NCBI GenBank assembly: GCA_049510745.1
Contig: JBEKYR010000012.1
Coordinates: forward strand, 88,267-152,266
Reading direction: 5' to 3'
DNA length: 64,000 bases
From: Verrucomicrobiota bacterium
GTDB lineage: Bacteria; Verrucomicrobiota; Verrucomicrobiia; Limisphaerales; Palsa-1400
Shown: one piece after another, positions 17,471 through 60,326 of the stretch
How the letters are laid out: each line of letters opens with the position of its first letter
Position numbering within the stretch: the stretch's first letter is position 1
Position numbers and translations under genes: made by a program
Notes under the pieces: generated by a model
Database searches by the model: none
Seen by the model: the letters and a program-made list of their open reading frames with translations, nothing else
What the model was told of the DNA's origin: nothing

Positions 17471-18262
17471 TTAGAAACTCTTAACGAAGTACTTATTGGT
17501 GCTGTTATTGTTCAGCCCAAGCCGCAAGTCGATCCGTTTGAACGGGCCGAAAGACCAGACGACGGCGTGACCGGGCGGGTTCAGGCCGGTGCTGCCGCTG
17601 AATTGATTCATGTACATCTGGTTCAGATAAGGATCGAAAGCGTGGTCGTTGTAGTTTAAGTCAATCGTCACCATATAGGGCAAGCCCCAGGGATCGCGCC
17701 ACACCTCGTCAGATCCAAGTCCGGGAGGGCCGGGAGCGGCCCCTGAGGTGGCTGGAGCGGTGGCCGCCTTTGGCTGGAAGAACGGCGTTTGCCGCGAATT
17801 GTAAATATGGCCGGAATTGTTGGTGAACTCAGGCCAAAAGTTATCATCCCCCAGAATCGCCATCAATTCCGAATTGTTATTCTGCCAGGTGGCGGCGGAT
17901 TCACCGAGGGTCGTGATCGAAAATGCGGCGCCGGTGGCCGGGTTGATCGGCATTCCAGATAAGGCGCCTGCGGAGCCATTGGCCGAGCCGAAAGTGAAAT
18001 CGTTGGTGGTCCCCGCGACCGCAGCCACGGCATTGGACGAGGCGGGAAGCCGGCTATAAGTGGCGTAATACTGCTCGATGGCGCCCACCAAAAGGCTTTC
18101 CTCCGATTGTGCCATCTTCATTTGCGTGTTGATTCTGACCCGGCCATAGGTGGGCACGAGCAGGGCGGCCAAAATTCCGATGATGGCGATGACAACCAGC
18201 AGTTCAACGAGAGTAAACGCCGCCCGAAGCGGCCCGGCGGCGGGAAATGGCCTCTGGCACAT
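17471..18262 (-). CDS. Prepilin-type N-terminal methylation domain protein (pseudopilin-like)
   Basis: AFTLVELLVVIAIIGILAALL; DPWGLPY. Confidence 0.9.
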   Translation of the reverse strand: MCQRPFPAAGPLRAAFTLVELLVVIAIIGILAALLVPTYGRVRINTQMKMAQSEESLLVGAIEQYYATYSRLPASSNAVAAVAGTTNDFTFGSANGSAGALSGMPINPATGAAFSITTLGESAATWQNNNSELMAILGDDNFWPEFTNNSGHIYNSRQTPFFQPKAATAPATSGAAPGPPGLGSDEVWRDPWGLPYMVTIDLNYNDHAFDPYLNQMYMNQFSGSTGLNPPGHAVVWSFGPFKRIDLRLGLNNNSTNKYFVKSF

Positions 18263-18271
18263 AACCCTCCT

Positions 18272-19012
18272 CTAAAAGCTCGTGACGATGTAGCGGTTGG
18301 GGGGTAGCGGCGAGCGCAGGAACTGGTTCGTGGCGACGGTCTTCTGCGGACCAAACGACCAGACCACTGCCACGCCGGGGACGTTGAGGATATTGGTTCT
18401 GTTTCCTCCCGGCGGCGACTGGTACATCTGATTCAAGGCGACATCAAACACCTTGTTGTCGTAGCCCAAATCGAGCGTCACGATGTACGGCATGCCCCAC
18501 GGGTCGCGCAAGACTTCGTCCGGCCCGAGACCGGGAGAATTGGTGTCGAGCGCGGTCTTCGGGTTGAAGAACACCGTCTGTTGCGGGTTGTAAATATGGG
18601 CCAGATTGCCGCTCACCTCGGGCCAGACCCTGTCGTCCCGCAGAATCGCCATGAGTTCGGCGTTATTGGTTTGATACACAGTTTCTCCCGCAGTCATGAT
18701 GTTGTTCGTGAGACCCAGGCCCGCCGTCCCATAGGTGAAATCATTCGAATTGGCGGTCGCCTGCAAAGCCGCCGCCACCGCGTTGCTCGAAGCGGGCAGG
18801 CGGCTGTAGGTGGCCTGATACTGGTTAATAGCGCCGACGAGGTTGACCTCCTCGGCTTGACAGAGCTTGCGCTGGGCGTTGACTTTGGCCCTGCCGAGGG
18901 CGGGGAGGAGCAGGCCGGCCAAAATTCCGATGATGGCGATGACGACCAGCAGTTCGATCAGGGTAAACGCCCGGCCAGACAGGCGGGTTGCGGGAAACGG
19001 TCTCTTTAACAT
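18272..19012 (-). CDS. Prepilin-type N-terminal methylation domain protein (paralog)
   Basis: AFTLIELLVVIAIIGILAGLLLP; DPWGMPY. Confidence 0.9.
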   Translation of the reverse strand: MLKRPFPATRLSGRAFTLIELLVVIAIIGILAGLLLPALGRAKVNAQRKLCQAEEVNLVGAINQYQATYSRLPASSNAVAAALQATANSNDFTYGTAGLGLTNNIMTAGETVYQTNNAELMAILRDDRVWPEVSGNLAHIYNPQQTVFFNPKTALDTNSPGLGPDEVLRDPWGMPYIVTLDLGYDNKVFDVALNQMYQSPPGGNRTNILNVPGVAVVWSFGPQKTVATNQFLRSPLPPNRYIVTSF

Positions 19013-35707: not shown

Positions 35708-35802
35708 GATCCGCAGCCGTCCTTTCGTTACGCGAGGATCAAGGGCTGTTTTCTTAACTTGACCGGAGGCTGCAATGGCGTTTGGATGGCGGCGCTTATC
35801 TT

Positions 35803-37104
35803 ATGAAGATTCTCAAATGGGCCGTGTTGGGCGGCGCGTTGTCCTTCGTTTTCGCCGGGTGCCTGGCGCGGCACGAGACCGGCTTTGTCCCGCTGTTCGA
35901 CGGCAAAACGCTCCATGGCTGGACGGAAATGCACAAGACGCCCGGCCCTTCCTATTTTGTCACCAATGGCGTCATTGCGTCGCCCCCGAACGCGGCCAAC
36001 GATCTGGTCACCGACCAGGCGTTTGGCGATTTTATTCTGCGCATGGATTTCAAATTGACTCCCGGCGCCAACAACGGGGTCGGCATCCGGGTCCCGTTCG
36101 AGACCAACGATCTGACTTATTCGGGCAACGAGGTGCAGATTCTCGATGATGACGACGCGCAATACGCGCACCTGGATCCGGGCCAGTATTGCGGTTCGCT
36201 TTACAAGGTTTTCCCCGCCAGGCGCGGCGCGCTGAACAAGGCGGGCGAGTGGAACCATTATGAAATCAGCGTTCTTGGCCGCCATATCGAAGTTGTGCTG
36301 AACGGCCAGACCATCGTGGACGGCAACATGAATGAGGTGACGGACCGGGAAGTGTTGCGCGGCCATCCCGGCCTGTTGCGCGATCGCGGGCACATCGCGC
36401 TGCTGGGCCACTGGAGCTATTGCGAATTCCGCGACATTTTCATCAAGGAATTTCCACGCGCCGAACGGGAGAACACGCCGCCGGAAGGGTTCACGGCTCT
36501 TTTTGACGGACACGATCTGGCCGGCTGGAAGGGCCTGGTCGCCGATCCTCCGGCGCGCGCGAAAATGCCGCCGGACGAGCTGGCCGCCGCCCAAGCCCGG
36601 GCCGACGAGCGGATGCGCGCGCATTGGAAGGCCGCCGGCGGCCTGCTGGTCTTCGACGGCCACGGCGACAACCTTTGCACGGCGCGCGATTACGGCGATT
36701 TCGAGATGTTGGTGGATTGGAAAATTCCGCCCAAGGGGGACAGCGGCATTTATTTGCGCGGCACGCCGCAGGTGCAAATCTGGGAGACGAACAGCCCCGG
36801 ACAATTCCCCGCGCCCGACGGCTCCGGGGGCCTCTGGAACAACCGGAAGAATAACCGGCACCCGCTGAAATATGCCGATCACCCGGTCGGCCAGTGGAAT
36901 CGGTTCCGCATTCTCATGGTGGGCGGGCAGGCGCATGTGTTTCTGAACGGAGAGTTGGTGGTGCGCGACACGACGCTGGAGAATTATTGGGAGCCGGACA
37001 AGCCGATTTATCCGACGGGCCAGATCGAATTGCAGAACCACGGCGGGCCGCTTTGGTTCAAGAACATCTACCTCCGGGAAATCCCGCCCGCGCCGGCGCG
37101 ATAA
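35803..37104 (+). CDS. Tandem DUF1080 (3-keto-disaccharide hydrolase-like) lipoprotein
   Basis: FAGC lipobox; two LFDG..L.GW domains; GHIALLGH and GQIELQNHG...FKNIYLREI. Confidence 0.88.
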   Translation: MKILKWAVLGGALSFVFAGCLARHETGFVPLFDGKTLHGWTEMHKTPGPSYFVTNGVIASPPNAANDLVTDQAFGDFILRMDFKLTPGANNGVGIRVPFETNDLTYSGNEVQILDDDDAQYAHLDPGQYCGSLYKVFPARRGALNKAGEWNHYEISVLGRHIEVVLNGQTIVDGNMNEVTDREVLRGHPGLLRDRGHIALLGHWSYCEFRDIFIKEFPRAERENTPPEGFTALFDGHDLAGWKGLVADPPARAKMPPDELAAAQARADERMRAHWKAAGGLLVFDGHGDNLCTARDYGDFEMLVDWKIPPKGDSGIYLRGTPQVQIWETNSPGQFPAPDGSGGLWNNRKNNRHPLKYADHPVGQWNRFRILMVGGQAHVFLNGELVVRDTTLENYWEPDKPIYPTGQIELQNHGGPLWFKNIYLREIPPAPAR

Positions 37105-43707: not shown

Positions 43708-44030
43708 ATGAGCCTTCTGGAACACTTAGTCGCTGTGAAAGACGATGTTCGCTACTGTGAATTCCTGTTTCTCTGCGAGACAGAAAAACATCCATTGAAG
43801 TGGGTTAACGTCAACGACGCGAGGGAACAACAGGCGGTCGGATTGCAACAGACGATGTATGCCGAAATGGTCATGTCCATGCTCGAAGATTTATATGTGC
43901 ATCCCAACCAAGGCGAGATTTTAGGTCTTGCTCGTCAGGTGCGCCGAGAAACTCTGCGCAATCCAGGCATCGCCCGGCACGACCTGTTCACGAAACTTAT
44001 CAGCGGCCTTTATCAATTTCGCATCACCGA
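43708..44030 (+). pseudogene. Hypothetical protein, apparently 3'-truncated at the junction with the recombinase remnant
   Basis: MSLLEHLVAV... frame continues only as antisense of the recombinase after ~44030. Confidence 0.35.
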
Positions 44031-45801
44031 CACGCAGGCCGCAACAAAACAAGAGCGTCAAACCGATCTGAACAGTGTGAGAGCGCAATGGAGTGGACTT
44101 CCTGTTTTCCAGTTGTGCGGCAGTCGCCAGCACGCGTGCCATTTCCTCTGTGGACACCAGACGTGGCAATCGTGCAGATGATGGTTTTCGGAAAGGGGTC
44201 TGGTCGGGCACGAAGCAGCGCGGGTGTTGGCGGGCGTAATGCACGAGAAAACCTCGGACGCAATACCAGTAATTGCGTTGCGTCTTGGCAGCGAGATGGG
44301 ATTTGGTCTTGGCCCAGAGGCAGTAGCACTCACGGTTGAGGGTTTTCACTTTTTGCCGATAAAGAAAAGCATCCCAGTCCCGCAGAACGCCCTCCTCCTC
44401 GGCGTACTTGCAGCCCAGCGTTCGCCGGGTGTCGATGTATTGCTTTATGGACTCGCCAAACGCGCTGCGAAAGCGTGACTGCGAACGGGGTCGTGGCCCC
44501 ATTTGCACACGGACTTTCGGAAAACGCGCGTGCCAGTCTCCTGTCAACAAAGGCATGGCTTGGACTGGCTTGGGAACTGGCAATCCCGCCTTGCGCAAAT
44601 CATCGACGTTCAGCCGCAGATATTGGGCGGTACTCGTCAAGTTGCGGTGTCCTAACGTGTCTCCGATACACTTCATGGATACCCCGCGCCGGAGAAAATG
44701 TACGGCCAGTGAATGACGCAGGGTATGTGGGCTAACGCGACCGAGTTCCAGCCCACTGTGCTTGAGCCGATTTTGCAGGATGACATTTACTGCCCAGGGA
44801 AGCAGCGGCCCCTCCGGAGCCCGCGACCGCAAGAACAACTCTCGCCGACTGCTGCGCGGTCTGGCTTTGCGCAGATAACGCGCCAGCACATCGCCCGCCT
44901 CGTCGGTCAAAGGAAGCGACAGCGCCTGCCGTGTTTTGGCCTGTTTTACATGCAGAACGCCGTTGCGCCAGTCGATGCTTTCCAAGCGCAACCCGACCAC
45001 ATCACTGCGGCGCAATCCATAAAGCGCGATCAGAAAGAGCATCGTAAAGTCACGCAGACCGGCGGGACTCGTTTTATCAATCGAGCGCAGCAATGCTCTC
45101 ACCTGTTCCCTTGTCAGCGCACACGGCAACCGTTCCCCGGCGTACACCCGTGGTGTGTCGAGTTGCTCATGCAGGGGACGGGGCAAGGTTCCTTGAGAGA
45201 ACTCAAATCGGAGGAACGCCCGTAGCGTGAGGACGACGTTGAGCAGACTGTGCCGGTCGTGTGTCCGGGCCATCTGCTGCACAAAGCGTTCGATCTGACT
45301 ATGTTCAAGCTGGGTCAAGGCCGACTGTTTGCGGTCGTAACCGATAGACTCCAAGAATCGAACCACGCACCGGTGGTGATCCACAATGGTACTTTCTGCC
45401 AATCCACGCACTTCCCGCAGATGCGTCGCATAACACCCAGCTTCCTTTTGCGACGGCGACAGCACGGCTGGCTTGGGGGCTGGCAGCGCGTGCCGATCAC
45501 AGAGAAAACGGTGTAACGCTTGACCGGCCCACCGGGCATTGTCATCGCGAGGGCGGAAATACGCATCCGCCGCCGTCAGCACTTCCGGGGTTATCTGCGC
45601 CCTGGAGGCAATCCGCCGCCGTCGCAGCCAGTGGTCAATCACATACGCGCCTTGAGACATTCCTCGAATGGTGCGTCGAGTGTAACCCTGTGACTGGAGC
45701 CACTCGGCAAAGCCCTCCATCACGGGGCCGAAGACAGGCAGGCTTGAATACCTGACGTGGTTAAGAGGAAAGACATGTTTTAAAAGAGAAGTGTTTTTCA
45801 T
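43921..45801 (-). CDS. Fused RIT-type tyrosine recombinase: complete RitA-like domain plus RitB-like domain truncated just after its catalytic Arg
   Basis: YGLRRSDV, KQAKT, PHTLRHS, LGH...QYLR; then FRSAFGESIKQYIDTRRTLG... LLFCCGLRVG followed by unrelated sequence. Confidence 0.8.
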   Translation of the reverse strand: MKNTSLLKHVFPLNHVRYSSLPVFGPVMEGFAEWLQSQGYTRRTIRGMSQGAYVIDHWLRRRRIASRAQITPEVLTAADAYFRPRDDNARWAGQALHRFLCDRHALPAPKPAVLSPSQKEAGCYATHLREVRGLAESTIVDHHRCVVRFLESIGYDRKQSALTQLEHSQIERFVQQMARTHDRHSLLNVVLTLRAFLRFEFSQGTLPRPLHEQLDTPRVYAGERLPCALTREQVRALLRSIDKTSPAGLRDFTMLFLIALYGLRRSDVVGLRLESIDWRNGVLHVKQAKTRQALSLPLTDEAGDVLARYLRKARPRSSRRELFLRSRAPEGPLLPWAVNVILQNRLKHSGLELGRVSPHTLRHSLAVHFLRRGVSMKCIGDTLGHRNLTSTAQYLRLNVDDLRKAGLPVPKPVQAMPLLTGDWHARFPKVRVQMGPRPRSQSRFRSAFGESIKQYIDTRRTLGCKYAEEEGVLRDWDAFLYRQKVKTLNRECYCLWAKTKSHLAAKTQRNYWYCVRGFLVHYARQHPRCFVPDQTPFRKPSSARLPRLVSTEEMARVLATAAQLENRKSTPLRSHTVQIGLTLLFCCGLRVGDAKLIKAADKFREQVVPGDAWIAQSFSAHLTSKT

Positions 45802-45835
45802 TCCCCACATCCCAAACGCCGCGCCACCCAAGCGT

Positions 45836-45950
45836 CAATAATGTTGCATTGAACTCCCCCGTATCGCCTTTGATTATCGAAGTCAACCCACGGCTACGCA
45901 ACATTACTGATCGCTCAACATTAATGCTGTTATGTTAAACTTCACATAAC
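45836..45950. mobile_element. Terminal recombination-site array of the RIT-like element
   Basis: TAATGTTGC/GCAACATTA inverted pair; GCTCAACATTA-ATGCTG-TTATGTTAAAC (dif-like 11-6-11); GTTATGT-8bp-ACATAAC. Confidence 0.6.
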
Positions 45951-46336
45951 ATCATTACGGTGATGGCGGGTTGCGGGTCGTCCACGTCCAGGGCGCCGCA
46001 AGTGGCGATCAGTTTCACCAGCCGGGGGCGGCGGTTGTCGTTGCGCACGTAAAGCGCAAACGGCAGGCGTGTTTGACCGGGGCTTGTCTTGCGGATGGCG
46101 TGCCGCAAGAGCGTCAGGACATCCCAAAGGCGTCCGGCTTCGTCCTGGCCAGCCACGTCGGGCGGCACGGTCACGTAAACGTCATAAACGGCGCGGGTGA
46201 GAAAGACCGGAAAGCGGATTCCGGCTTCCTGCGCGGTCTTGGTCACTTCGACTTGAAAACCGTCGGCGACGGCGTGGGCGCGGGTGTAGGTGTAAATCAC
46301 TTCGCCAAAAGGCGAGTCGTTTTCATTCGTGTTCAT
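45935..46336 (-). CDS. DUF6573-like ICE/plasmid protein, C-terminus probably clipped by the RIT insertion
   Basis: VIYTYTRAHAVADG...EAGIRFPVFLT...DEAGRLWDVL...PAITVMM then LCEV* read from the site array. Confidence 0.65.
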   Translation of the reverse strand: MNTNENDSPFGEVIYTYTRAHAVADGFQVEVTKTAQEAGIRFPVFLTRAVYDVYVTVPPDVAGQDEAGRLWDVLTLLRHAIRKTSPGQTRLPFALYVRNDNRRPRLVKLIATCGALDVDDPQPAITVMMLCEV

Positions 46337-46340
46337 GGTG

Positions 46341-46535
46341 TTAGTGTTTGCGTGATGGTGGGGTGAACAGCGCCGCCTGCGCCTTCTCCGCAAGTCTGTG
46401 GGCGCGGTTTGCCTCGTCGCGTTCACGGGCAAGACGGTCTCCGTCGAGTCCGGTTTCCTGCATCAAGGTGAACGTGTCGGGGACAAAACCAAACTCGTGT
46501 TGCGGAATCGCCAAGCGGCGTCTGTTTCGTTTCAT
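46341..46535 (-). CDS. Small hypothetical protein
   Basis: 64-aa ORF tightly packed between co-oriented neighbours. Confidence 0.55.
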   Translation of the reverse strand: MKRNRRRLAIPQHEFGFVPDTFTLMQETGLDGDRLARERDEANRAHRLAEKAQAALFTPPSRKH

Positions 46536-51077: not shown

Positions 51078-54000
51078 ATGCGCTTACAATCAGTGGACTT
51101 GAAAGCTCGGTTCTCGGTCGCTTTTCCTTGGTTTCCACGAATCAGGCTTCTCACAGGCACTCTTGTCTTGGCCACGTCGGTGGCGTCTGCGTCGCCCGAC
51201 GCCCTGGTTGACGGGGTGACGCTTAATTCAGGCCGGTCCAACAATTGCGGCGCCGTTGCGCTGCACCAATTGATCGTGGCCTTGAAAGGGGCGACGGCGG
51301 ACACAAAAATCATCGATGCCGCCCCTGTTCCCGCAAACGGCTTCTCCATGACGGAACTGCTGGCCCTTTCGGCCAAAGCCGGGCTTGATTTAGTTGCCGT
51401 GCAGCGTCCGGCAGGTGGATCCATCCCTGTGCCGAGCTTAATGCACTGGAAGCAAGGCCATTACAGCGCCATTGTGGATCAGCGCGAAGGCTTTTACAAG
51501 GTTTTCGATCCAAGCTTTCCCTCCCAATGGCTTGGGGACGGAACGATCTTGAAGGAATCAAGCGGAGATTTCATTGTGAAACAAGACAGAATCACCGCAA
51601 CTTGGCGGCGTCTGGCCCGGTCGCAAACCGATCGCATTCGCGGAGGTGTGGTCGTCTGGCTTCCTGCTTATTGCGACACCAACGATACCCCCCCTTGTCA
51701 GGCGGACTGTTCGAGTTGTCCGACCGGAGGCGATGAACCGATGGCGATGGCTGCCCCTTCGTCCGGGATGGCGACTTGGCGGGTTTCGGAGCCGTATATC
51801 AATCTGTGGTTGATGGACGAGCCGCTAGGGTACAATCCGGGATTGGGGAGCCGAATTTCATTCCAACTTGCCTATAAGCAACGCGAGACCTTGGCGGGAA
51901 CCAACCCCGCGGTATTCAGTTGCGGACAGATGTGGAATTGTTCCTGGATTAGTTATGTGATCGCACCGTCGATCACTCCGCCACCCGGGCCGCCCATGAC
52001 GTTGGTGCTGCCGGATGGAGGCGAGCGGGGCTACACGGCGGACGGGGCGACTCCGGAGTATTACAGCCGCAGCGTGATGAGCGTGACGACGACGAACGGC
52101 GGGACGCTCGCTGGTTGCACGGTTGTTTACCCGGATGGGGCGAGCGATTCCTACAACGACGTGTTCACGGCCCCGTCGGGAGACGTTCTGTGCTTCCGTA
52201 CGGCGCAGACCGATCCGGCCGGCCACAGCACACAATTCATCTACACGAATTCGAGCACCAACATCGTCCTTATCTATGTCGTGGATACGGATGGACGCAC
52301 GAACACATTGGGTTACACCAACACCTCCTACCCGAACCAGATTACAGGAGTGACCGATCCGTTTGGGAGGAGCACAACGCTCGAGTATGACATCGCCGGG
52401 TTTCTGACCAATATAACCGACGTGATGAATCTTGCGAGCGCGTTTACTTACGGCGCCAACCAGTGGATCACATCTCTGAGCACGCCCTACGGCACAACCA
52501 CATTCAGCTTAACCGACAATAAGATGTCCACCAACGATGCCATTGACCGGGCGGTTTTGGTGGTGGACCCGATGGGTGGCAAAAATCTTTTTGTCTCCCG
52601 TCACGAGGCCAGTTTTCTCAGTGGCACGACCTACACCGTGCCGAACGAACCGGCGGGCGCTCCGTCCATTTCGTCCAGCACCATGACCTATCTGAACAGT
52701 TGGCACTGGGGCCCGATGCAATTTCCACAGTTGTCCACGACCAACATGTACTCGTTCACGGCAGCGGACTACCTGAAGGGCCGGCAGCGCAACTGGCTGG
52801 CTGGCTCCGCCAGCCTTGCCTTCAGCGACGCGCTGAACATGGAACAGGCGGTCAGCCCGGACGGCAGCACGCCGGGCCAGCAAAAGTGGCGGGCCTACGA
52901 CGGTGAAAGTGGTTACCAGCAAGGTACCAACGCATTACCGGCGGTGTTGGCGTGGATCCTGCCCGACGGCAACAGCTACTACCAATGGACTCAGCGGAAC
53001 GGTTGGGGAAACCCCACCGAGGTGCAAGAGGTCTGGTCGCAAACCTTTCGCGGCCTATCGCTGACTCGGATCAAGCAGTATTTCTACGCGGCCAACGGGA
53101 TCGATTTGATGCAACAACTCGGTCCGCTGAACGAGACAGTAGCCGGCTCCAGCTACGACACCCATCACAATGTCCTGACGGCGACGAACGCGGTTGGAGA
53201 CGTGACGACTTACACTTACGATACCGAGTCACGCTTGACCAGTGTCACCACGCCAGCGGGCTTAACGACAACCAACATCTACTTCTCCTCGACCGGCTAC
53301 ACGAATTGGATTCAGTGGCGGATTGACCTCCAAATCAGTCGCACGAATTCCTATTTTTATGCCAACGATCTTGTCGTGAGCCACACCAACGAGCTTGGCC
53401 TTGTGGTCAGGCAAACGTGGGACAACCTTCAGCGCTTGACCAGCACGACCTTTCTCGACGGCACCTACACCACCAACATTTACGTCAACCTCGACCTCGT
53501 CGAAACAATTGACAGGCTTGGCAATCAAACCAAGTACGGCTATGACGGGCTGAGACATCTGGTGGCCGTAACCAACGCGCTGGGCAATGTTACGCGCTAC
53601 AATTACTGCACCTGCGGCGCGCTGGAAAACATGCAAGATGCGTTAAACCACTACACGTATTATTACTATGACATCGCGGGGCGCCGGGTCAACATCGTCT
53701 ATCCCGACTTGACCTCGATAACAAATAATTACAACCCCTTGAGCCAGGTTACAAACAAGACGGATGGCGCGGGAATAAGCACGACAAACTGGTACACCGA
53801 CCAGGGCCTTTTATACGCTTCCAGCAACGCCTTCGGTCAAGTGTTTGTTCGATGGTTTGACATCGAAGACCGCCTTACCAACAGCGTTGACGCCAATGGC
53901 GTGGGGATTACCAATACCTACGACAATCTGGCCCGGGTGCTAACGCGCAGCTACCCCGGTGGCGGGGTGGAACGGTTTGGGTATTCGGCCTTCGGATTGG

Positions 54001-56237
54001 TCGCTTACACCAACCAGTTGACCAACGTCACCCTTTACGGCTACGACGGTGCTCGCCGGAAAATCGCGGAAACCAATGCGCTCTCTCAAGTCACTCAATA
54101 CGCCTACGATCCGGCTGGTGACCTCACCAATCTTACGGATGCGAACAACCACAGCACAGGCTGGGGTTATGACGTGTATGGACGGGCGACCAACAAGGTG
54201 GATGCAACGGGTACGTCGATTTTGCAGTATCAGTACGACGCCGACAATCGGCTGACCAATCGTTGGAGCATTGCAAAGACGAACACTGCCTACGCCTACG
54301 ACAACGTGGGAAACTTGACGGGCGTGACGTACTATTTCAACCACGCGCTGTCGTTTTCCTACGACGCCATGAACCGGATGACCAGCATGTCGGACGGGAT
54401 CGGGACGACGACATTTACCTACACGCCGACCGGACAATTGACTTCCGAGAGCGGCCCGTGGGCCGGCGATACGGTCTCTTACGCCTATTCCGACCGGCTG
54501 CGAACGGCGCTGAGTTTGCAGGAGCCCAACGCCTCCGCTTGGGTGGAAAGTTACGGATACGACCTGGCTAATCGCCTGCACACGATCACCTCGCCGGCGG
54601 GGACTTTCACGTACATATACAATCCGGGCCTGGCGGGGGCAACGTCCTCCTCGTCCTTGATCGCAAATATCGCGTTGCCGAGTGGCGCGTTCATCACCAA
54701 CACTTTCGACAACAACGCGCGGATGCTCGGGACGTGGCTCTACAACAGCGGCGCAAGTGCTTTGGATTACGCGGGATACACCTACAACCAGGGGAACCAA
54801 AGAACGGTGGCCATCCGTGGTGCGAATAATTCCGTTTCCAACAATTACGCTTATGACCCGATTGGACAGGTCGTGGGGGATAACGCTTACGAACAGTCCA
54901 ACAGCGCCCCGCGATTGAATGAGCAGTTGTCGTACGTTTTCGACCCGGCCGGGAACCTGAATTATCGCACGAACAACGGCTTGATCGAGAGTTTTCAGGT
55001 GAATTCGCTGAATGAGTTGACGATGAACACCAACGGTGGCACATTGACCGTCATGGGCACGACGACTTCACCGGCCACAAGTGTGACGGTCAACGGCACC
55101 AACGCGCTGCATTACGGCGATTCGACCTTCGCCGCCACGAACATGCCCTTGACCACGACGTACACCGCCGTTGCTCAGGATAGTTATGGGCGCAGCGCCA
55201 CGAACACCGTGACGGTCAGCCTATGCACCAATATCGCCTTCCAATATGACGCCAACGGGAACCTGACCAATGACGGCCTCCGCAGTTTTGCTTACGACGA
55301 CGAAAACCAGTTGACAAAGGTCTGGGTGGCCAACCAATGGTTGTCACAGTTCACGTACGATGGGAAGATGCGGCGGAGAATCAGGGAAGAGTTTACATGG
55401 ACAGGAGCCGCCTGGGTGCAGACCAACGCGGTCTATTACGTCTATGACGGGAATCTGGTCATCCAGGAGCGCGACATGAACAATTTGCCGCTGGTCACCT
55501 ACACGCGGGGCAAGGATTTAAGCGGCAGCTTGCAGGGAGCGGGCGGGATAGGGGGTTTATTGGCCCGCACTGACAACACGTCACTTGTCACTCCTCCCTC
55601 CTTTTACCACGCCGACGGAAACGGCAACATCACGATGCTGATAAACTCATCCCAAGCCATCGTGGCCAAATATCTTTACGACGCCTTTGGGAACATGCTC
55701 TCGAAATCCGGTTCGCTGGCGGACGCGAACGTTTATCGCTTTTCGAGCAAGGAATGGCATGCGAACTCGGGTCTGGTCTATTACCTCTACCGCTACTACG
55801 ACCCGAATTTACAACGGTGGCTCAATAGAGACCCATTAGAGGAAGCGGGAGGGCAAAATTTGTACCAATTTACAGCGAACGCACCGGTCGACTTTGCGGA
55901 TACGGATGGCAATGCGCCTATTCTAACGCAACCGCCGCAGTTTTTTTGGCCGACGAATCCGATGGTGCCATTTAGAGTGACTAACCCGCCTTCAGGTTGG
56001 TGGAGTATCCCGGATAATACACATCAGTGGAATCAATTACCACCGTACCCCCAAAAAGGTCCAACCAATCCGTCTCCGCCGGGGACGAACAATCCGTGTC
56101 CGCCGGGGACGAACAATCCTGCTCCGCCAGGGACGAACAATCCTGCTCCGCCAGGGACGAACAATCCTGCTCCGCCAGGGACGAACAATCCTGCTCCGCC
56201 AGGGACGAACAATCCTGCATCCGCCACTCCCAGATGA
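51078..56237 (+). CDS. Peptidase C39-RHS/YD-repeat fusion protein with Pro/Asn repeat C-terminus
   Basis: Signal-like N-terminus; NNCGAVAL, HWKQGHY, VFDPS (C39 Cys-His-Asp); many YD repeats; RHS core YRFSSKE...RYYDPNLQRWLNRDP...PVDFADTDG. Confidence 0.9.
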   Translation: MRLQSVDLKARFSVAFPWFPRIRLLTGTLVLATSVASASPDALVDGVTLNSGRSNNCGAVALHQLIVALKGATADTKIIDAAPVPANGFSMTELLALSAKAGLDLVAVQRPAGGSIPVPSLMHWKQGHYSAIVDQREGFYKVFDPSFPSQWLGDGTILKESSGDFIVKQDRITATWRRLARSQTDRIRGGVVVWLPAYCDTNDTPPCQADCSSCPTGGDEPMAMAAPSSGMATWRVSEPYINLWLMDEPLGYNPGLGSRISFQLAYKQRETLAGTNPAVFSCGQMWNCSWISYVIAPSITPPPGPPMTLVLPDGGERGYTADGATPEYYSRSVMSVTTTNGGTLAGCTVVYPDGASDSYNDVFTAPSGDVLCFRTAQTDPAGHSTQFIYTNSSTNIVLIYVVDTDGRTNTLGYTNTSYPNQITGVTDPFGRSTTLEYDIAGFLTNITDVMNLASAFTYGANQWITSLSTPYGTTTFSLTDNKMSTNDAIDRAVLVVDPMGGKNLFVSRHEASFLSGTTYTVPNEPAGAPSISSSTMTYLNSWHWGPMQFPQLSTTNMYSFTAADYLKGRQRNWLAGSASLAFSDALNMEQAVSPDGSTPGQQKWRAYDGESGYQQGTNALPAVLAWILPDGNSYYQWTQRNGWGNPTEVQEVWSQTFRGLSLTRIKQYFYAANGIDLMQQLGPLNETVAGSSYDTHHNVLTATNAVGDVTTYTYDTESRLTSVTTPAGLTTTNIYFSSTGYTNWIQWRIDLQISRTNSYFYANDLVVSHTNELGLVVRQTWDNLQRLTSTTFLDGTYTTNIYVNLDLVETIDRLGNQTKYGYDGLRHLVAVTNALGNVTRYNYCTCGALENMQDALNHYTYYYYDIAGRRVNIVYPDLTSITNNYNPLSQVTNKTDGAGISTTNWYTDQGLLYASSNAFGQVFVRWFDIEDRLTNSVDANGVGITNTYDNLARVLTRSYPGGGVERFGYSAFGLVAYTNQLTNVTLYGYDGARRKIAETNALSQVTQYAYDPAGDLTNLTDANNHSTGWGYDVYGRATNKVDATGTSILQYQYDADNRLTNRWSIAKTNTAYAYDNVGNLTGVTYYFNHALSFSYDAMNRMTSMSDGIGTTTFTYTPTGQLTSESGPWAGDTVSYAYSDRLRTALSLQEPNASAWVESYGYDLANRLHTITSPAGTFTYIYNPGLAGATSSSSLIANIALPSGAFITNTFDNNARMLGTWLYNSGASALDYAGYTYNQGNQRTVAIRGANNSVSNNYAYDPIGQVVGDNAYEQSNSAPRLNEQLSYVFDPAGNLNYRTNNGLIESFQVNSLNELTMNTNGGTLTVMGTTTSPATSVTVNGTNALHYGDSTFAATNMPLTTTYTAVAQDSYGRSATNTVTVSLCTNIAFQYDANGNLTNDGLRSFAYDDENQLTKVWVANQWLSQFTYDGKMRRRIREEFTWTGAAWVQTNAVYYVYDGNLVIQERDMNNLPLVTYTRGKDLSGSLQGAGGIGGLLARTDNTSLVTPPSFYHADGNGNITMLINSSQAIVAKYLYDAFGNMLSKSGSLADANVYRFSSKEWHANSGLVYYLYRYYDPNLQRWLNRDPLEEAGGQNLYQFTANAPVDFADTDGNAPILTQPPQFFWPTNPMVPFRVTNPPSGWWSIPDNTHQWNQLPPYPQKGPTNPSPPGTNNPCPPGTNNPAPPGTNNPAPPGTNNPAPPGTNNPAPPGTNNPASATPR
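56076..56219 (+). repeat. Six tandem 24-bp coding repeats (PPGTNNP[C/A])
   Basis: CCGCC(A/G)GGGACGAACAATCCTGCT units with no spacers. Confidence 0.95.
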
Positions 56238-58696: not shown

Positions 58697-58775
58697 AGCA
58701 TAAAAACTATTTCGCGAAAATAATCCAAAAAAGATTGAAACTTTTTTAGCGGCGTTGCGTCGGATTGACAGACTG

Positions 58776-60326
58776 ATGAACGACCCGGCGCTGCAAACGC
58801 AAATCAACCTGCTGCAAGAGCAAGTGGCCTCCTTGCGGCAGGCGTTGGAGCAAACCCGCCAGGCGTTGGAACAGTCCCGGCGCGAGAACACGATTTTGCG
58901 CCAGAAGCTCGACGCGCTGGCCCGGCGATTCTTTGGCAAAAAGAGCGAGCAGTTGAACGCCGCCCAGATGGAGTTGCTCCTCAGTGGTTTGATTGACAGT
59001 GCCGTCTCCGAGGAAAAGAAGGAGCCGCCCGCGCGGCCCGCGCCGCGCACTTCTCCTTCCTCTTCGCAACGCATTCGCACCCCGGAACATCTGGAAGTGA
59101 TACGCCAAGTCATCGAGCCGGAACTGGTGCAGGCCCAACCGGACCAATGGAAAAAGATCGGCGAGGAAATCAGCCGCCGGCTGGATTATCAGCCGGGCAA
59201 GTTCTTCTGGCAGGAAACCGTCCGGCCCAAATATGTGCGCGCCGATCAGCGGGACCTGCCGCCGGTGATGGCGCCGGCTCCGGCCCAAGTGGCCGAGCAC
59301 AGCCTGGCCGCGCCCGGTTTGCTGGCGCAAATCCTGGTGGCCAAGTATTGCGATCATTTGCCCTTCTACCGGCAGGAGCAGATTTTTCAGCAACGTCACG
59401 ACGTGTTCATCAGCCGTCAACAGATGGTGCAATGGACCTTTCAGAGTGTGCGCCTGCTTTCGGGCATCAGCGACTTTCTCAAAAATCAAATGCGCCAGAG
59501 CGGCTACGTGCAAGTGGATGAAACGCCGGTGCGCTATCAAGACTCGGATCTGCCGGGCCGCTGTGGACAAGGCTATCTGTGGGTGGCGTCGGTTCCCGAT
59601 GGGAGCGTGGTGTTTGAATGGCACGCCAGCCGGGCGGCGGGTTGTTTGAACTCCCTGTTGGGTCCGGGCTATCGGGGCAAGCTGCAAAGCGACGGTCACA
59701 GCGCCTATCCCGCCTTTGTCAAGGAGAAGGAGGATTTGAAACTCTTCGGCTGCTGGGCACATGCGCGGCGGGGATTTTTTGAAGCCAAGGAACAAGCGCC
59801 GCAAGTGGCGGGGTGGTTCTTAAACCAGATCGGGCAGATGTATGGCTGGGAAAGGCAACTGCGGTTGAGCCGGGCCGGACCGGCCTTGCGCCAGGCTCAT
59901 CGGCGGTCCGACAGCCGCATGGTGGTGGAACGACTGGAACGCGCGCTTCAATTGCTGCGCCCGCGTTACCTTCCAAAAAGTCCGATGGGGCAGGCCATCC
60001 ACTATGCCTTGAACCAATGGCCGACCCTGGTCCGGTTCCTGGATCATGGCGAAGTGGAGATCGATAACAATCTGGTGGAGAATGCCATCCGGCCTACAGC
60101 CATCGGCAAAAAGAACTGGCTGTTTTTCGGCTCAGAAGAAGCCGGCCAGCGCAGCGCCGTCATTTACACTCTGATTGAAAATTGCCGGCGCCACGGCGTG
60201 GAACCCCACACCTATCTCAAAGACGTGCTGGAGCGCCTGCCCACCACGACCAACCGGGAAGTCGGCCAACTGACGCCGCTCAACTGGAAGAAGGCCCGTC
60301 AACAACAAGTGAAGCTGGCCGCTTGA
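58776..60326 (+). CDS. tnpC: IS66 DDE transposase TnpC
   Basis: KYCDHLPFYRQ, VDETP, CWAHARR, IDNNLVENAIRP..GKKNWLF. Confidence 0.97.
   Translation: MNDPALQTQINLLQEQVASLRQALEQTRQALEQSRRENTILRQKLDALARRFFGKKSEQLNAAQMELLLSGLIDSAVSEEKKEPPARPAPRTSPSSSQRIRTPEHLEVIRQVIEPELVQAQPDQWKKIGEEISRRLDYQPGKFFWQETVRPKYVRADQRDLPPVMAPAPAQVAEHSLAAPGLLAQILVAKYCDHLPFYRQEQIFQQRHDVFISRQQMVQWTFQSVRLLSGISDFLKNQMRQSGYVQVDETPVRYQDSDLPGRCGQGYLWVASVPDGSVVFEWHASRAAGCLNSLLGPGYRGKLQSDGHSAYPAFVKEKEDLKLFGCWAHARRGFFEAKEQAPQVAGWFLNQIGQMYGWERQLRLSRAGPALRQAHRRSDSRMVVERLERALQLLRPRYLPKSPMGQAIHYALNQWPTLVRFLDHGEVEIDNNLVENAIRPTAIGKKNWLFFGSEEAGQRSAVIYTLIENCRRHGVEPHTYLKDVLERLPTTTNREVGQLTPLNWKKARQQQVKLAA

Follow-up and report, generated by a model that had tools for sequence, protein, structure and literature searches.

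A C39 peptidase and a leader-like site within one RHS protein chain: a candidate self-removing pro-domain in Verrucomicrobiota

The C39 peptidase domains of bacteriocin exporters of the ATP-binding cassette (ABC) type cut after leaders of the form L(S/T)xxELxxIxGG. In the excerpted text of the LahT paper, the leader sites that a C39 peptidase cleaves are GG, GA and GS (PMC6363468). Such peptidases are not confined to exporters. StbD-CT, a C39-type toxin, cuts itself in cis after Gly157-Gly158 in a reaction that depends on Cys183, according to the part of the preprint drawn on here (bioRxiv 10.64898/2026.05.07.723447). Toxins built from rearrangement hotspot (RHS) repeats and carrying signal peptides are also an established class, and appear as type II secretion ('T2SS') rows with RHS repeats in the portions of Zhang 2012 used for this work. 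What is poorly understood is how RHS cages are matured and delivered when they are neither fired by a type VI secretion system (T6SS) nor mounted on a Tc injector. Here, a family of RHS proteins is described that offers a concrete candidate for such a step, namely a C39 peptidase that is built into the protein together with its site. The starting point is a gene, P0001, in a stretch of 64,000 nucleotides (the window) from a Verrucomicrobiota bacterium (GenBank assembly GCA_049510745.1, contig JBEKYR010000012.1, positions 88,267 to 152,266).

By its repeats and its core, the product of P0001 would be classed as an RHS protein of the polymorphic-toxin type. Pfam finds RHS_repeat in 10 stretches (E 5e-50), and NCBIfam scores Rhs_assc_core at 71.9 bits against a cut-off of 32.5. 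Ahead of the cage, and in the same chain, stand a signal-peptide-like N-terminus, a C39 peptidase domain, a segment that resembles a double-glycine leader, and a Cys-rich linker (Table 1). This layout of signal, C39 domain, cis site and RHS region defines a large undescribed protein family. The domains themselves have, of course, already been seen by automatic annotation; the new part is their reading. The best reading, and one that we hold to be rather probable, is that the C39 domain is a pro-domain that removes itself at the bond between G190 and V191. The support for this is indirect.

The domain belongs to peptidase family C39 by its hidden Markov model (HMM) match, its triad and its fold. 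Residues 53-152 match Peptidase_C39 (PF03412) with 28.9 bits, where the cut-off is 22 (E 1.2e-6), and a scan of the whole genome with PF03412 scores the protein at 34.3 bits. A profile made from 14 family members matches LahT150 (6mpz) with E 4e-13 and ComA (3k8u) with E 1.2e-9. In this alignment, the Cys of the family, the second His of its HWxxxH motif and the Asp of its DP pair correspond to Cys27, His101 and Asp117 of LahT. This, in turn, means that the triad of P0001 is Cys57, His128 and Asp144. A model of residues 39-230 was made with AlphaFold2 (AF2) from an alignment of 23 rows, and was read out as secondary structure and as the predicted local distance difference test (pLDDT). Its mean pLDDT is 82, with values mostly above 90 for model residues 11-152. 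The top match of this model in a Foldseek search of the PDB is again 6mpz (E 2.1e-5, probability 1.00, template-modelling score (TM, target) 0.63); further matches at probability 1.00 are 3b79, 5xe9, 3zua, PCAT1 and 3k8u. P0001 has no ABC domains by Pfam or NCBIfam, and is therefore not a peptidase-containing ABC transporter (PCAT). It carries the only C39 domain found by the scan of its genome. With no second C39 domain there, no PCAT exporter is present to use the motif or to explain it.

An initial annotation of the window had proposed an RHS protein with a C39 peptidase and its own double-glycine cleavage motif in cis, and most of what it described is borne out. Each of the sequences that it quoted is present where it was said to be. 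NNCGAVAL holds Cys57, HWKQGHY holds His123 and His128, and VFDPS holds Asp144. The segment LARSQTDRIRGG/VVVW follows in both the translation and the DNA (L179-G190, nt 51612-51647; the slash marks a predicted cut, here and below), and behind it come the Cys-rich linker and the YD cage. The HMM and structural matches given above bear out its C39 assignment, and the repeats and Rhs core bear out its RHS cage. The signal-like N-terminus that it noticed is likewise recognizable, as R21 and R23, then LLTGTLVLATSVASA (Kyte-Doolittle mean 1.2-1.8), then a putative signal-peptidase site ASA/SP.

The leader-like segment of P0001 comprises W176, L179, Q183, I187, R188, G189 and G190. Judged by sequence, its spacing of -4, -8 and -12, together with the Gly at -2, is the pattern of double-glycine leaders. 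Conservation was assessed in an alignment of 169 sequences, being the 150 best representatives, P0001 and 18 homologs. Here, the Cys/His/Asp triad is intact in 168, the remaining row being truncated at its N-terminus, and the Gly at -2 is found in all 169. Val or Ile occupies -4 in 162, Glu occupies -8 in 140, and Val or Leu occupies -12 in 146; Trp at -15 (157 of 169), an aromatic residue at -3 (147) and Gly at +1 (158) are similarly widespread. Position -1 is Lys in 96 and Arg in 46 (142 of 169 between them), Met in 11, Gly in 10 and some other residue in 6. Thus, the expectation that homologs would conserve the GG holds for the first Gly throughout and for both in the clade of the window's protein (10 of 10 members), and fails for the second Gly across the family, which as a whole would, from its sequences, better be called a "G-[KR]" family than a "GG" family. 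A second clade from the same phylum has textbook or near-textbook sites (L010-L012, L020). These read ASELEAFAGG/CC, SSELKQFTGG/CC and NELRSFTGG/CC, the last being that of L020, which has Asp instead of a hydrophobic residue at -12.

Taken alone, the motif is weak evidence. When the sequence of P0001 is shuffled, the loose form of the motif appears in 23% of the shuffles, and the strict GG version is matched a mean of 0.075 times per shuffle. What places the motif beyond chance is its fixed position directly after the C39 domain and its conservation throughout the family. Covariation is suggestive and not significant. When fully occupied columns are compared, position -1 is most strongly paired with the residue two places ahead of the catalytic Cys, a residue that is Phe or Tyr in 172 of 175 Lys/Arg members, and Asn, Arg or Leu in the 14 Gly members. 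Cys+3, Cys+6 and His-2 are the other columns that rank high.

The family is not small. A word-indexed search with residues 1-260 gave 20 other proteins, 18 of which have a C39 domain before the RHS region. Eleven of 400 sampled other genomes of the same phylum carry one or two C39-RHS genes (13 loci: L003-L013, L019 and L020); five more matches in this sample (L014-L018) are ordinary ABC exporters with C39 domains and have a different architecture. A profile of the module, run against 1.84 billion cluster representatives, produced 8162 matches at E<=0.001, of which 1033 also pass E<=1e-30. The 150 best cover, with few exceptions, almost the whole profile, from the peptidase through the motif to the first RHS strands, and most of them are 1500-2100 aa long, the shorter ones probably being contig fragments. 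A contig search with the N-terminal 260 aa returned a single weak and unrelated locus (Leptolyngbya, 36 residues matched). Relatives are recorded under names such as "RHS repeat-associated protein" and [quoted passage not shown], and at least some of the family belongs to Verrucomicrobiota. A look-up of the clusters gave no name other than the first of these. In most members, the signal peptide and the peptidase are separated by an additional stretch of 150-220 residues, which is missing from the window's clade; no Pfam family was found in this stretch in any of the six full-length members scanned.

Where the segment lies on the enzyme is suggested by the AF2 model. Positions -12 to -3 have a pLDDT of about 97, with a helix from -10 to -5 and a bridge at -3. 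Beyond G190, confidence is lost within a few residues, and the pLDDT is below 50 across the Cys-rich linker. Such a motif, helical and then extended and resting on the C39 domain in the model, has the form that a bound leader takes. The segment was also presented as a separate chain (residues 39-168 with residues 169-230). This split-chain prediction scored 0.50 against 0.04 for the best of three controls, a result classed as "weak support". The pass mark for such scores is reached by 116 of 157 solved complexes and by 2 of 215 mismatched pairs; passes at 0.60 or lower comprise 18 of the 157 solved complexes and both of the mismatched pairs that pass. Contact agreement between the runs was at least 63%, the pLDDT of the partner was at least 48, and the result does not bear on whether G190 lies at Cys57. 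The pass may, of course, reflect memory, since both parts come from the same chain and the solved structures include a comparable complex, 6mpz.

A different line of evidence comes from relatives that do without the peptidase. Among 122 relatives of the N-terminal RHS region (residues 191-480), the C39 module is present in 51 and absent from 71. The boundary was located with the anchor x5-[IVLA]-x-[DN]-x2-D-x-C. In 17 C39-bearing proteins, the first residue of this anchor is the Gly that directly follows G[KRM]. In five C39-less proteins (P0181, P0194, P0208, P0215 and P0223), it starts at a Gly directly behind a hydrophobic, signal-peptide-like stretch, these stretches ending VYG, LQA, LHA, VLG or AFA. 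The clade of the window's protein provides its own case, where P0024, which has no C39 domain, reads ..ALGYA/SYPASPGYPDTND, and P0009 reads ..IRGG/SYPASPGYPDTND. Therefore, processing by signal peptidase in one set of proteins and at the predicted C39 site in the other would leave an identical N-terminus. The same coincidence favours, in members with Lys or Arg, a cut after -1 and not one after the invariant Gly.

Other C39-less relatives begin differently. About 18 of the 71 (P0177, P0178, P0182, P0185 and others) begin at or next to the Met of GM(A/P)xW, mostly exactly at it, and have no signal peptide; their starts may be mis-called, or their N-terminal part may be separately encoded or absent. 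Many (P0206, P0207, P0212, P0214, P0218, P0219 and others) have a signal peptide and another domain of about 100-150 aa, beta-rich in appearance, which precedes the same DDxxDG...C-GMPxW junction. From these sequences, the pro-region appears to be a swappable cassette.

In the mechanism proposed here, P0001 would be a pre-pro-RHS toxin container, carried across the inner membrane by its signal peptide. The C39 peptidase would bind the leader-like segment just C-terminal to itself, as PCAT peptidases bind double-glycine leaders. L179 and I187 of the helix would occupy a hydrophobic groove, and R188-G189-G190 would reach in extended form into the active site. A cut after G190, most likely within the same chain, would free the RHS cage, leaving V191 and the Cys-rich linker as the new N-terminus, and the pro-fragment that departs would consist of the peptidase and its own "leader". 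If the Rhs core behaves as its family does, its aspartyl autoprotease may then make a second cut and free the proline-rich cargo inside the cage. A wider proposal is offered tentatively, as a possibility that we would sooner doubt than defend. Here, P0001 would represent a widespread and undescribed class of Sec-exported, two-gene RHS systems (a variable binder and a cage), in which the cage is made as a zymogen-like precursor, the C39 domain excises itself at a built-in leader whose P1 has shifted from Gly to Lys or Arg in most members, and the new N-terminus, precisely set as Gly in most members and as Val or Ser in the clade of the window's protein, is what primes the cage or permits its assembly with the partner.

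The earlier claim that the protease removes itself at the GG thus stands in part. It is favoured by the conserved motif, its placement in the AF2 model, the boundary shared with C39-less relatives and the precedent of StbD-CT, and it is weakened by a second Gly that is not conserved family-wide. Several other points weigh against self-removal. The Lys or Arg (142 of 169) and the Met (11 of 169) at P1 are types unreported as cut by characterised C39 peptidases, and in these members the invariant Gly may itself be P1, with an aromatic residue at P2, which would put the cut one residue nearer the N-terminus. At -7 there is a small residue (Ala, Gly or Thr) and not Leu; Leu-7 of the leader mattered for LahT150, by the excerpted account (PMC6363468). 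The Gln found at Cys-6 in LahT and ComA is replaced by Ser51 in P0001 and is absent from the aligned homologs as well; that this residue has its proposed oxyanion role is itself doubted in the excerpted part of the LahT paper (PMC6363468). A tree-aware test of the covariation (independent pairs on a FastTree of the domain) is not significant (median p 0.5), with only six supported pairs (same direction 2.4, opposite 0.0, no difference 3.6), and Gly at -1 arose only twice on this tree. The shared boundary would be the same if it were a plain, tight domain boundary. Its cases are partly non-independent, with P0194, P0208 and P0209 being related to each other, and the C39-less P0197 and P0023 show a different spacing. 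A free catalytic thiol would have to survive outside the cytoplasm, and the call of a putative signal peptide was made by eye.

The main rival to self-removal, which we consider unlikely, is that the segment is an uncleaved pseudo-substrate, most readily in the members with Lys, Arg or Met. It would sit permanently in the C39 groove, in an autoinhibitory or structural role. The domain would stay attached to the cage and might serve in docking, or be a latent protease that becomes free or active at the target and nowhere else. To this rival belong the 153 of 169 members whose P1 is Lys, Arg or Met, when the cuts reported for characterised C39 peptidases in the text already cited are at GG, GA and GS (PMC6363468), and also the fact that AF2 models the segment as an integral and very confident part of the domain. 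Degenerate C39-like domains (CLDs) that bind without cutting are known, moreover, and that of HlyB (3zua) is among the fold matches. Unlike such domains, however, this family keeps its triad in 168 of 169 sequences. It also has canonical GG or near-canonical leaders in the window's clade and in a second clade, and C39-less relatives whose predicted mature chain starts exactly at +1. The Gly at +1, found in 158 of 169 C39-bearing proteins and in five relatives with a signal peptide only, fits a required free N-terminus.

Improbable, in our view, is a protease that acts in trans, whose true substrates would be the upstream partner, other RHS copies or proteins of a target cell, with the cis motif only guiding or gating it. 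StbD-CT does cleave GyrB and ParE at GG sites, in the portion of the preprint available to us (bioRxiv 10.64898/2026.05.07.723447); an upstream partner gene occurs in 10 of 12 related loci; and the split-chain prediction gives weak support to binding of the segment as a separate chain. A scan with the leader-like pattern, however, found no site in P0002 or P0003, which flank the RHS gene, and in P0001 only the cis site and one loose match (residue 566). The payload of an RHS toxin is, further, C-terminal and inside the cage, whereas the C39 domain here is N-terminal and outside it, and cutting between copies would have the same outcome as cutting in cis. Hardly credible is the view that the C39 domain is a decaying relic, a passenger without a role, and that the motif beside it is due to chance, its GG being fortuitous. 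The shuffles with a loose motif (23%) and the modest Pfam score (28.9 bits) would permit this, but 1033 clusters match the whole module at E<=1e-30, and the triad and the Gly at -2 are essentially invariant. By these conservation data, a chance origin is already contradicted.

Table 1. Features of the P0001 region and upstream open reading frames (ORFs) at related loci. Positions are those of the window unless a locus is named; a slash marks a predicted cut.
Feature	Position	Strand	Extent or remark	Basis
C39-RHS gene P0001	51078..56237	+	1719 aa, single open frame; end coordinate includes the stop codon	
Signal-peptide-like N-terminus	51078..51191	+	residues 1-38; predicted signal-peptidase site ASA/SP	inspection and hydropathy
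C39 cysteine peptidase domain	51210..51587	+	about residues 45-170	Pfam PF03412, profile match, AF2, Foldseek
Triad codons	51246-51248; 51459-51461; 51507-51509	+	Cys57; His128; Asp144	
Leader-like motif	51603..51647	+	W176-G190 (WRRLARSQTDRIRGG)	sequence, family alignments, AF2
Predicted scissile bond G190/V191	between 51647 and 51648	+	G189-G190 at 51642-51647	
Cys-rich linker	51648..51767	+	residues 191-230 (C199, C207, C211, C214; DTND motif)	predicted mature N-terminus
RHS/YD-repeat cage	51768..55910	+	residues 231-1611	Pfam, NCBIfam
Rhs-associated core	55677-55910	+	residues 1534-1611	NCBIfam Rhs_assc_core
C-terminal tail	55911..56234	+	108 aa after the core, proline-rich	sequence, Pfam
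Upstream gene P0002	47841..51038	+	1065 aa from TTG (start uncertain)	secreted-looking, DxDGDG-type C-terminal region
Downstream gene P0003	56331..57758	+	475 aa	transglutaminase-like core and TPR repeats
Tyrosine (phage-type) integrase	43924-45831	-		
DUF6573 gene	45938-46432	-		
IS66 transposase	58755-60323	+		
Upstream ORF, L024	9693-13610			
Upstream ORF, L027	9565-13503			
Upstream ORF, L031	9691-13416			
Upstream ORF, L032	8416-12075			
Upstream ORF, L033	658-4503			
Upstream ORF, L028	2-5251			
Upstream ORF, L030	10163-15499			
Upstream ORF, L025	2-3277			
Upstream ORF, L029	2-1225			
Upstream ORF, L023	9426-10259			

That P0001 starts at ATG 51078 is borne out by the pattern MRLQS..LKT....FPR.RLL, which its homologs have in common with it; the database gene call for the same gene, P0004, begins 30 residues later. 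Within the linker, C214 is invariant in two homolog alignments. The consensus of the Rhs-core aspartyl autoprotease, at the end of the core, is of the DPxGL type. P0001 reads ..NRDPLEEAGGQNLY..VDFADTDGN there, the last motif being degenerate. The tail that follows holds 6.7 copies of a 24-nt repeat (PPGTNNPA; 56066-56226), and Pfam finds no toxin or other family in its 108 aa. A proline-rich tail is an unusual cargo for an RHS cage. Several close homologs have proline-rich tails too, some with a hydrophobic run at the end.

The gene directly upstream, P0002, ends 39 nt before the RHS gene. No Pfam family was found in its product. In L025, the ORF that immediately precedes the C39-RHS gene matches this product with 31% identity over 459 aa. 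This arrangement recurs. Of 12 related loci fetched with their flanks, 10 have an ORF on the same strand that ends no more than 47 nt from the start codon of the C39-RHS gene or overlaps that start. Nine of these ten ORFs are large, the longest having 1779 aa and the shortest 408 aa, the latter being truncated where its contig ends; the tenth has 278 aa. Their bodies vary, being built from DUF5122 or RCC1 propellers, LamG, Ig, fn3 or Calx-beta domains; shared among them are bacterial TSP3 repeats and/or a last strand of similar sequence (..TPPxITIxEP..) directly ahead of the stop. The pattern suggests that a variable binder and a cage may form a conserved two-gene module. The downstream gene was considered as a conserved immunity or partner gene and rejected, as tblastn found a homolog of P0003 at none of the 12 loci. 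P0003 itself has a hydrophobic N-terminal stretch, a papain-fold, transglutaminase-like core and a weak match, in its TPR part only, to the PA2778 C39 peptidase family.

The three-gene cluster probably lies on a genomic island, because an integrase and an IS66 transposase flank it and because the G+C around it is lower (0.50-0.57 in the profile at 44-58 kb, against about 0.60-0.64 elsewhere in the window). The genome has one other RHS gene (C25, P0025). It is of a different type, has no C39 domain and has an unrelated N-terminus, and was therefore uninformative for comparison. Neither the T6SS sheath protein VipB/TssC nor PAAR gave a match in the genome (5.6 Mb, 94% complete), and P0001 contains no PAAR domain. 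The absence of PAAR and T6SS genes first reported for the window thus extends, as searched, to the genome. The conclusion once drawn from it, that the delivery route would be unusual, does not survive. Signal-peptide RHS toxins are the established class introduced above (Zhang 2012, in the portions used), and the lack of a T6SS is therefore not in itself remarkable. At some distance in the window (17474-19012 on the minus strand and 35782-37101 on the plus strand) are two proteins with prepilin-type N-terminal methylation motifs and a 3-keto-disaccharide hydrolase (DUF1080-type) gene. Genes of both types are common in the genomes of Verrucomicrobiota and Planctomycetota, and so fit the taxon names of the homologs.

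If self-removal is true, the roles of C39 peptidases in ABC exporters and as toxin domains would be joined by that of a self-removing pro-domain of very large secreted proteins. A lineage with Lys or Arg at P1 would, further, have a new specificity, and might provide a processing tool like LahT150. The two-gene module of variable binder and cage would become a candidate delivery system in Verrucomicrobiota. Full-text searches and a targeted reading of Zhang 2012, with subscription journals and supplements outside their scope, turned up no account of RHS proteins that have a C39 domain at the N-terminus and a cis site for it.

How does this protein compare with systems already described? The Rhs effectors of the T6SS (TseI, RhsA, Rhs1) resemble it, in the excerpted accounts of them, in having an RHS cage that is matured by self-cleavage at both its N- and C-terminal sides. 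Those effectors have PAAR or VgrG-binding N-termini and, in the same accounts, have no dedicated N-terminal protease domain, whereas P0001 has a signal-like peptide and a C39 domain, in a genome where neither PAAR nor a T6SS sheath was found. As far as its sequence can tell, P0001 is not a T6SS Rhs effector. The releasing peptidases of polymorphic toxins (HINT, ZU5, PrsW, caspase-like and PVC metallopeptidase), as the relevant passages of Zhang 2012 present them, are also built-in proteases that process the protein that carries them. They release the toxin domain, whereas the C39 domain of P0001 is N-terminal and would release the whole cage from the pro-region; those passages name no C39 domain among them.

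Closer in the enzyme itself are StbD-CT and Tox-PL-C39. StbD-CT, of the CdiA type, places a C39 domain in a polymorphic-toxin protein, and its self-cleavage falls in the adjacent linker, as the excerpted preprint has it. Tox-PL-C39 is a C39-like domain found with RHS repeats, and is listed for Bacteroidetes, Chloroflexi and Firmicutes, and not for Verrucomicrobia, in the passages used of Zhang 2012. Both of these are, by the same partial sources, C-terminal toxins that are delivered, and in StbD-CT the GG lies upstream of the peptidase. In P0001 the C39 domain is N-terminal and outside the cage, with the site downstream.

The closest likeness in sequence and fold is to the PCATs, also called ABC-transporter maturation and secretion (AMS) proteins, represented by ComA, LahT and PCAT1. 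These share with P0001 the Pfam family, the fold and the Cys-His-Asp triad. They share a site with hydrophobic residues at -4 and -12, Glu or Gln at -8 and Gly at -2, modelled here as helical and then extended, as in the complex of LahT147 with its leader. The differences are, however, several. The C39 domain of P0001 has no ABC transporter, stands behind a signal peptide and is presumably extracytoplasmic; and the C39-RHS family lacks the Gln at Cys-6, has mostly Lys or Arg at P1, and has a small residue at -7. Protease and site share one chain in P0001, the site lying C-terminal to the enzyme, and the enzyme would leave together with the "leader". The cargo so released would be not a peptide, as in those exporters, but a protein of more than 1500 aa.

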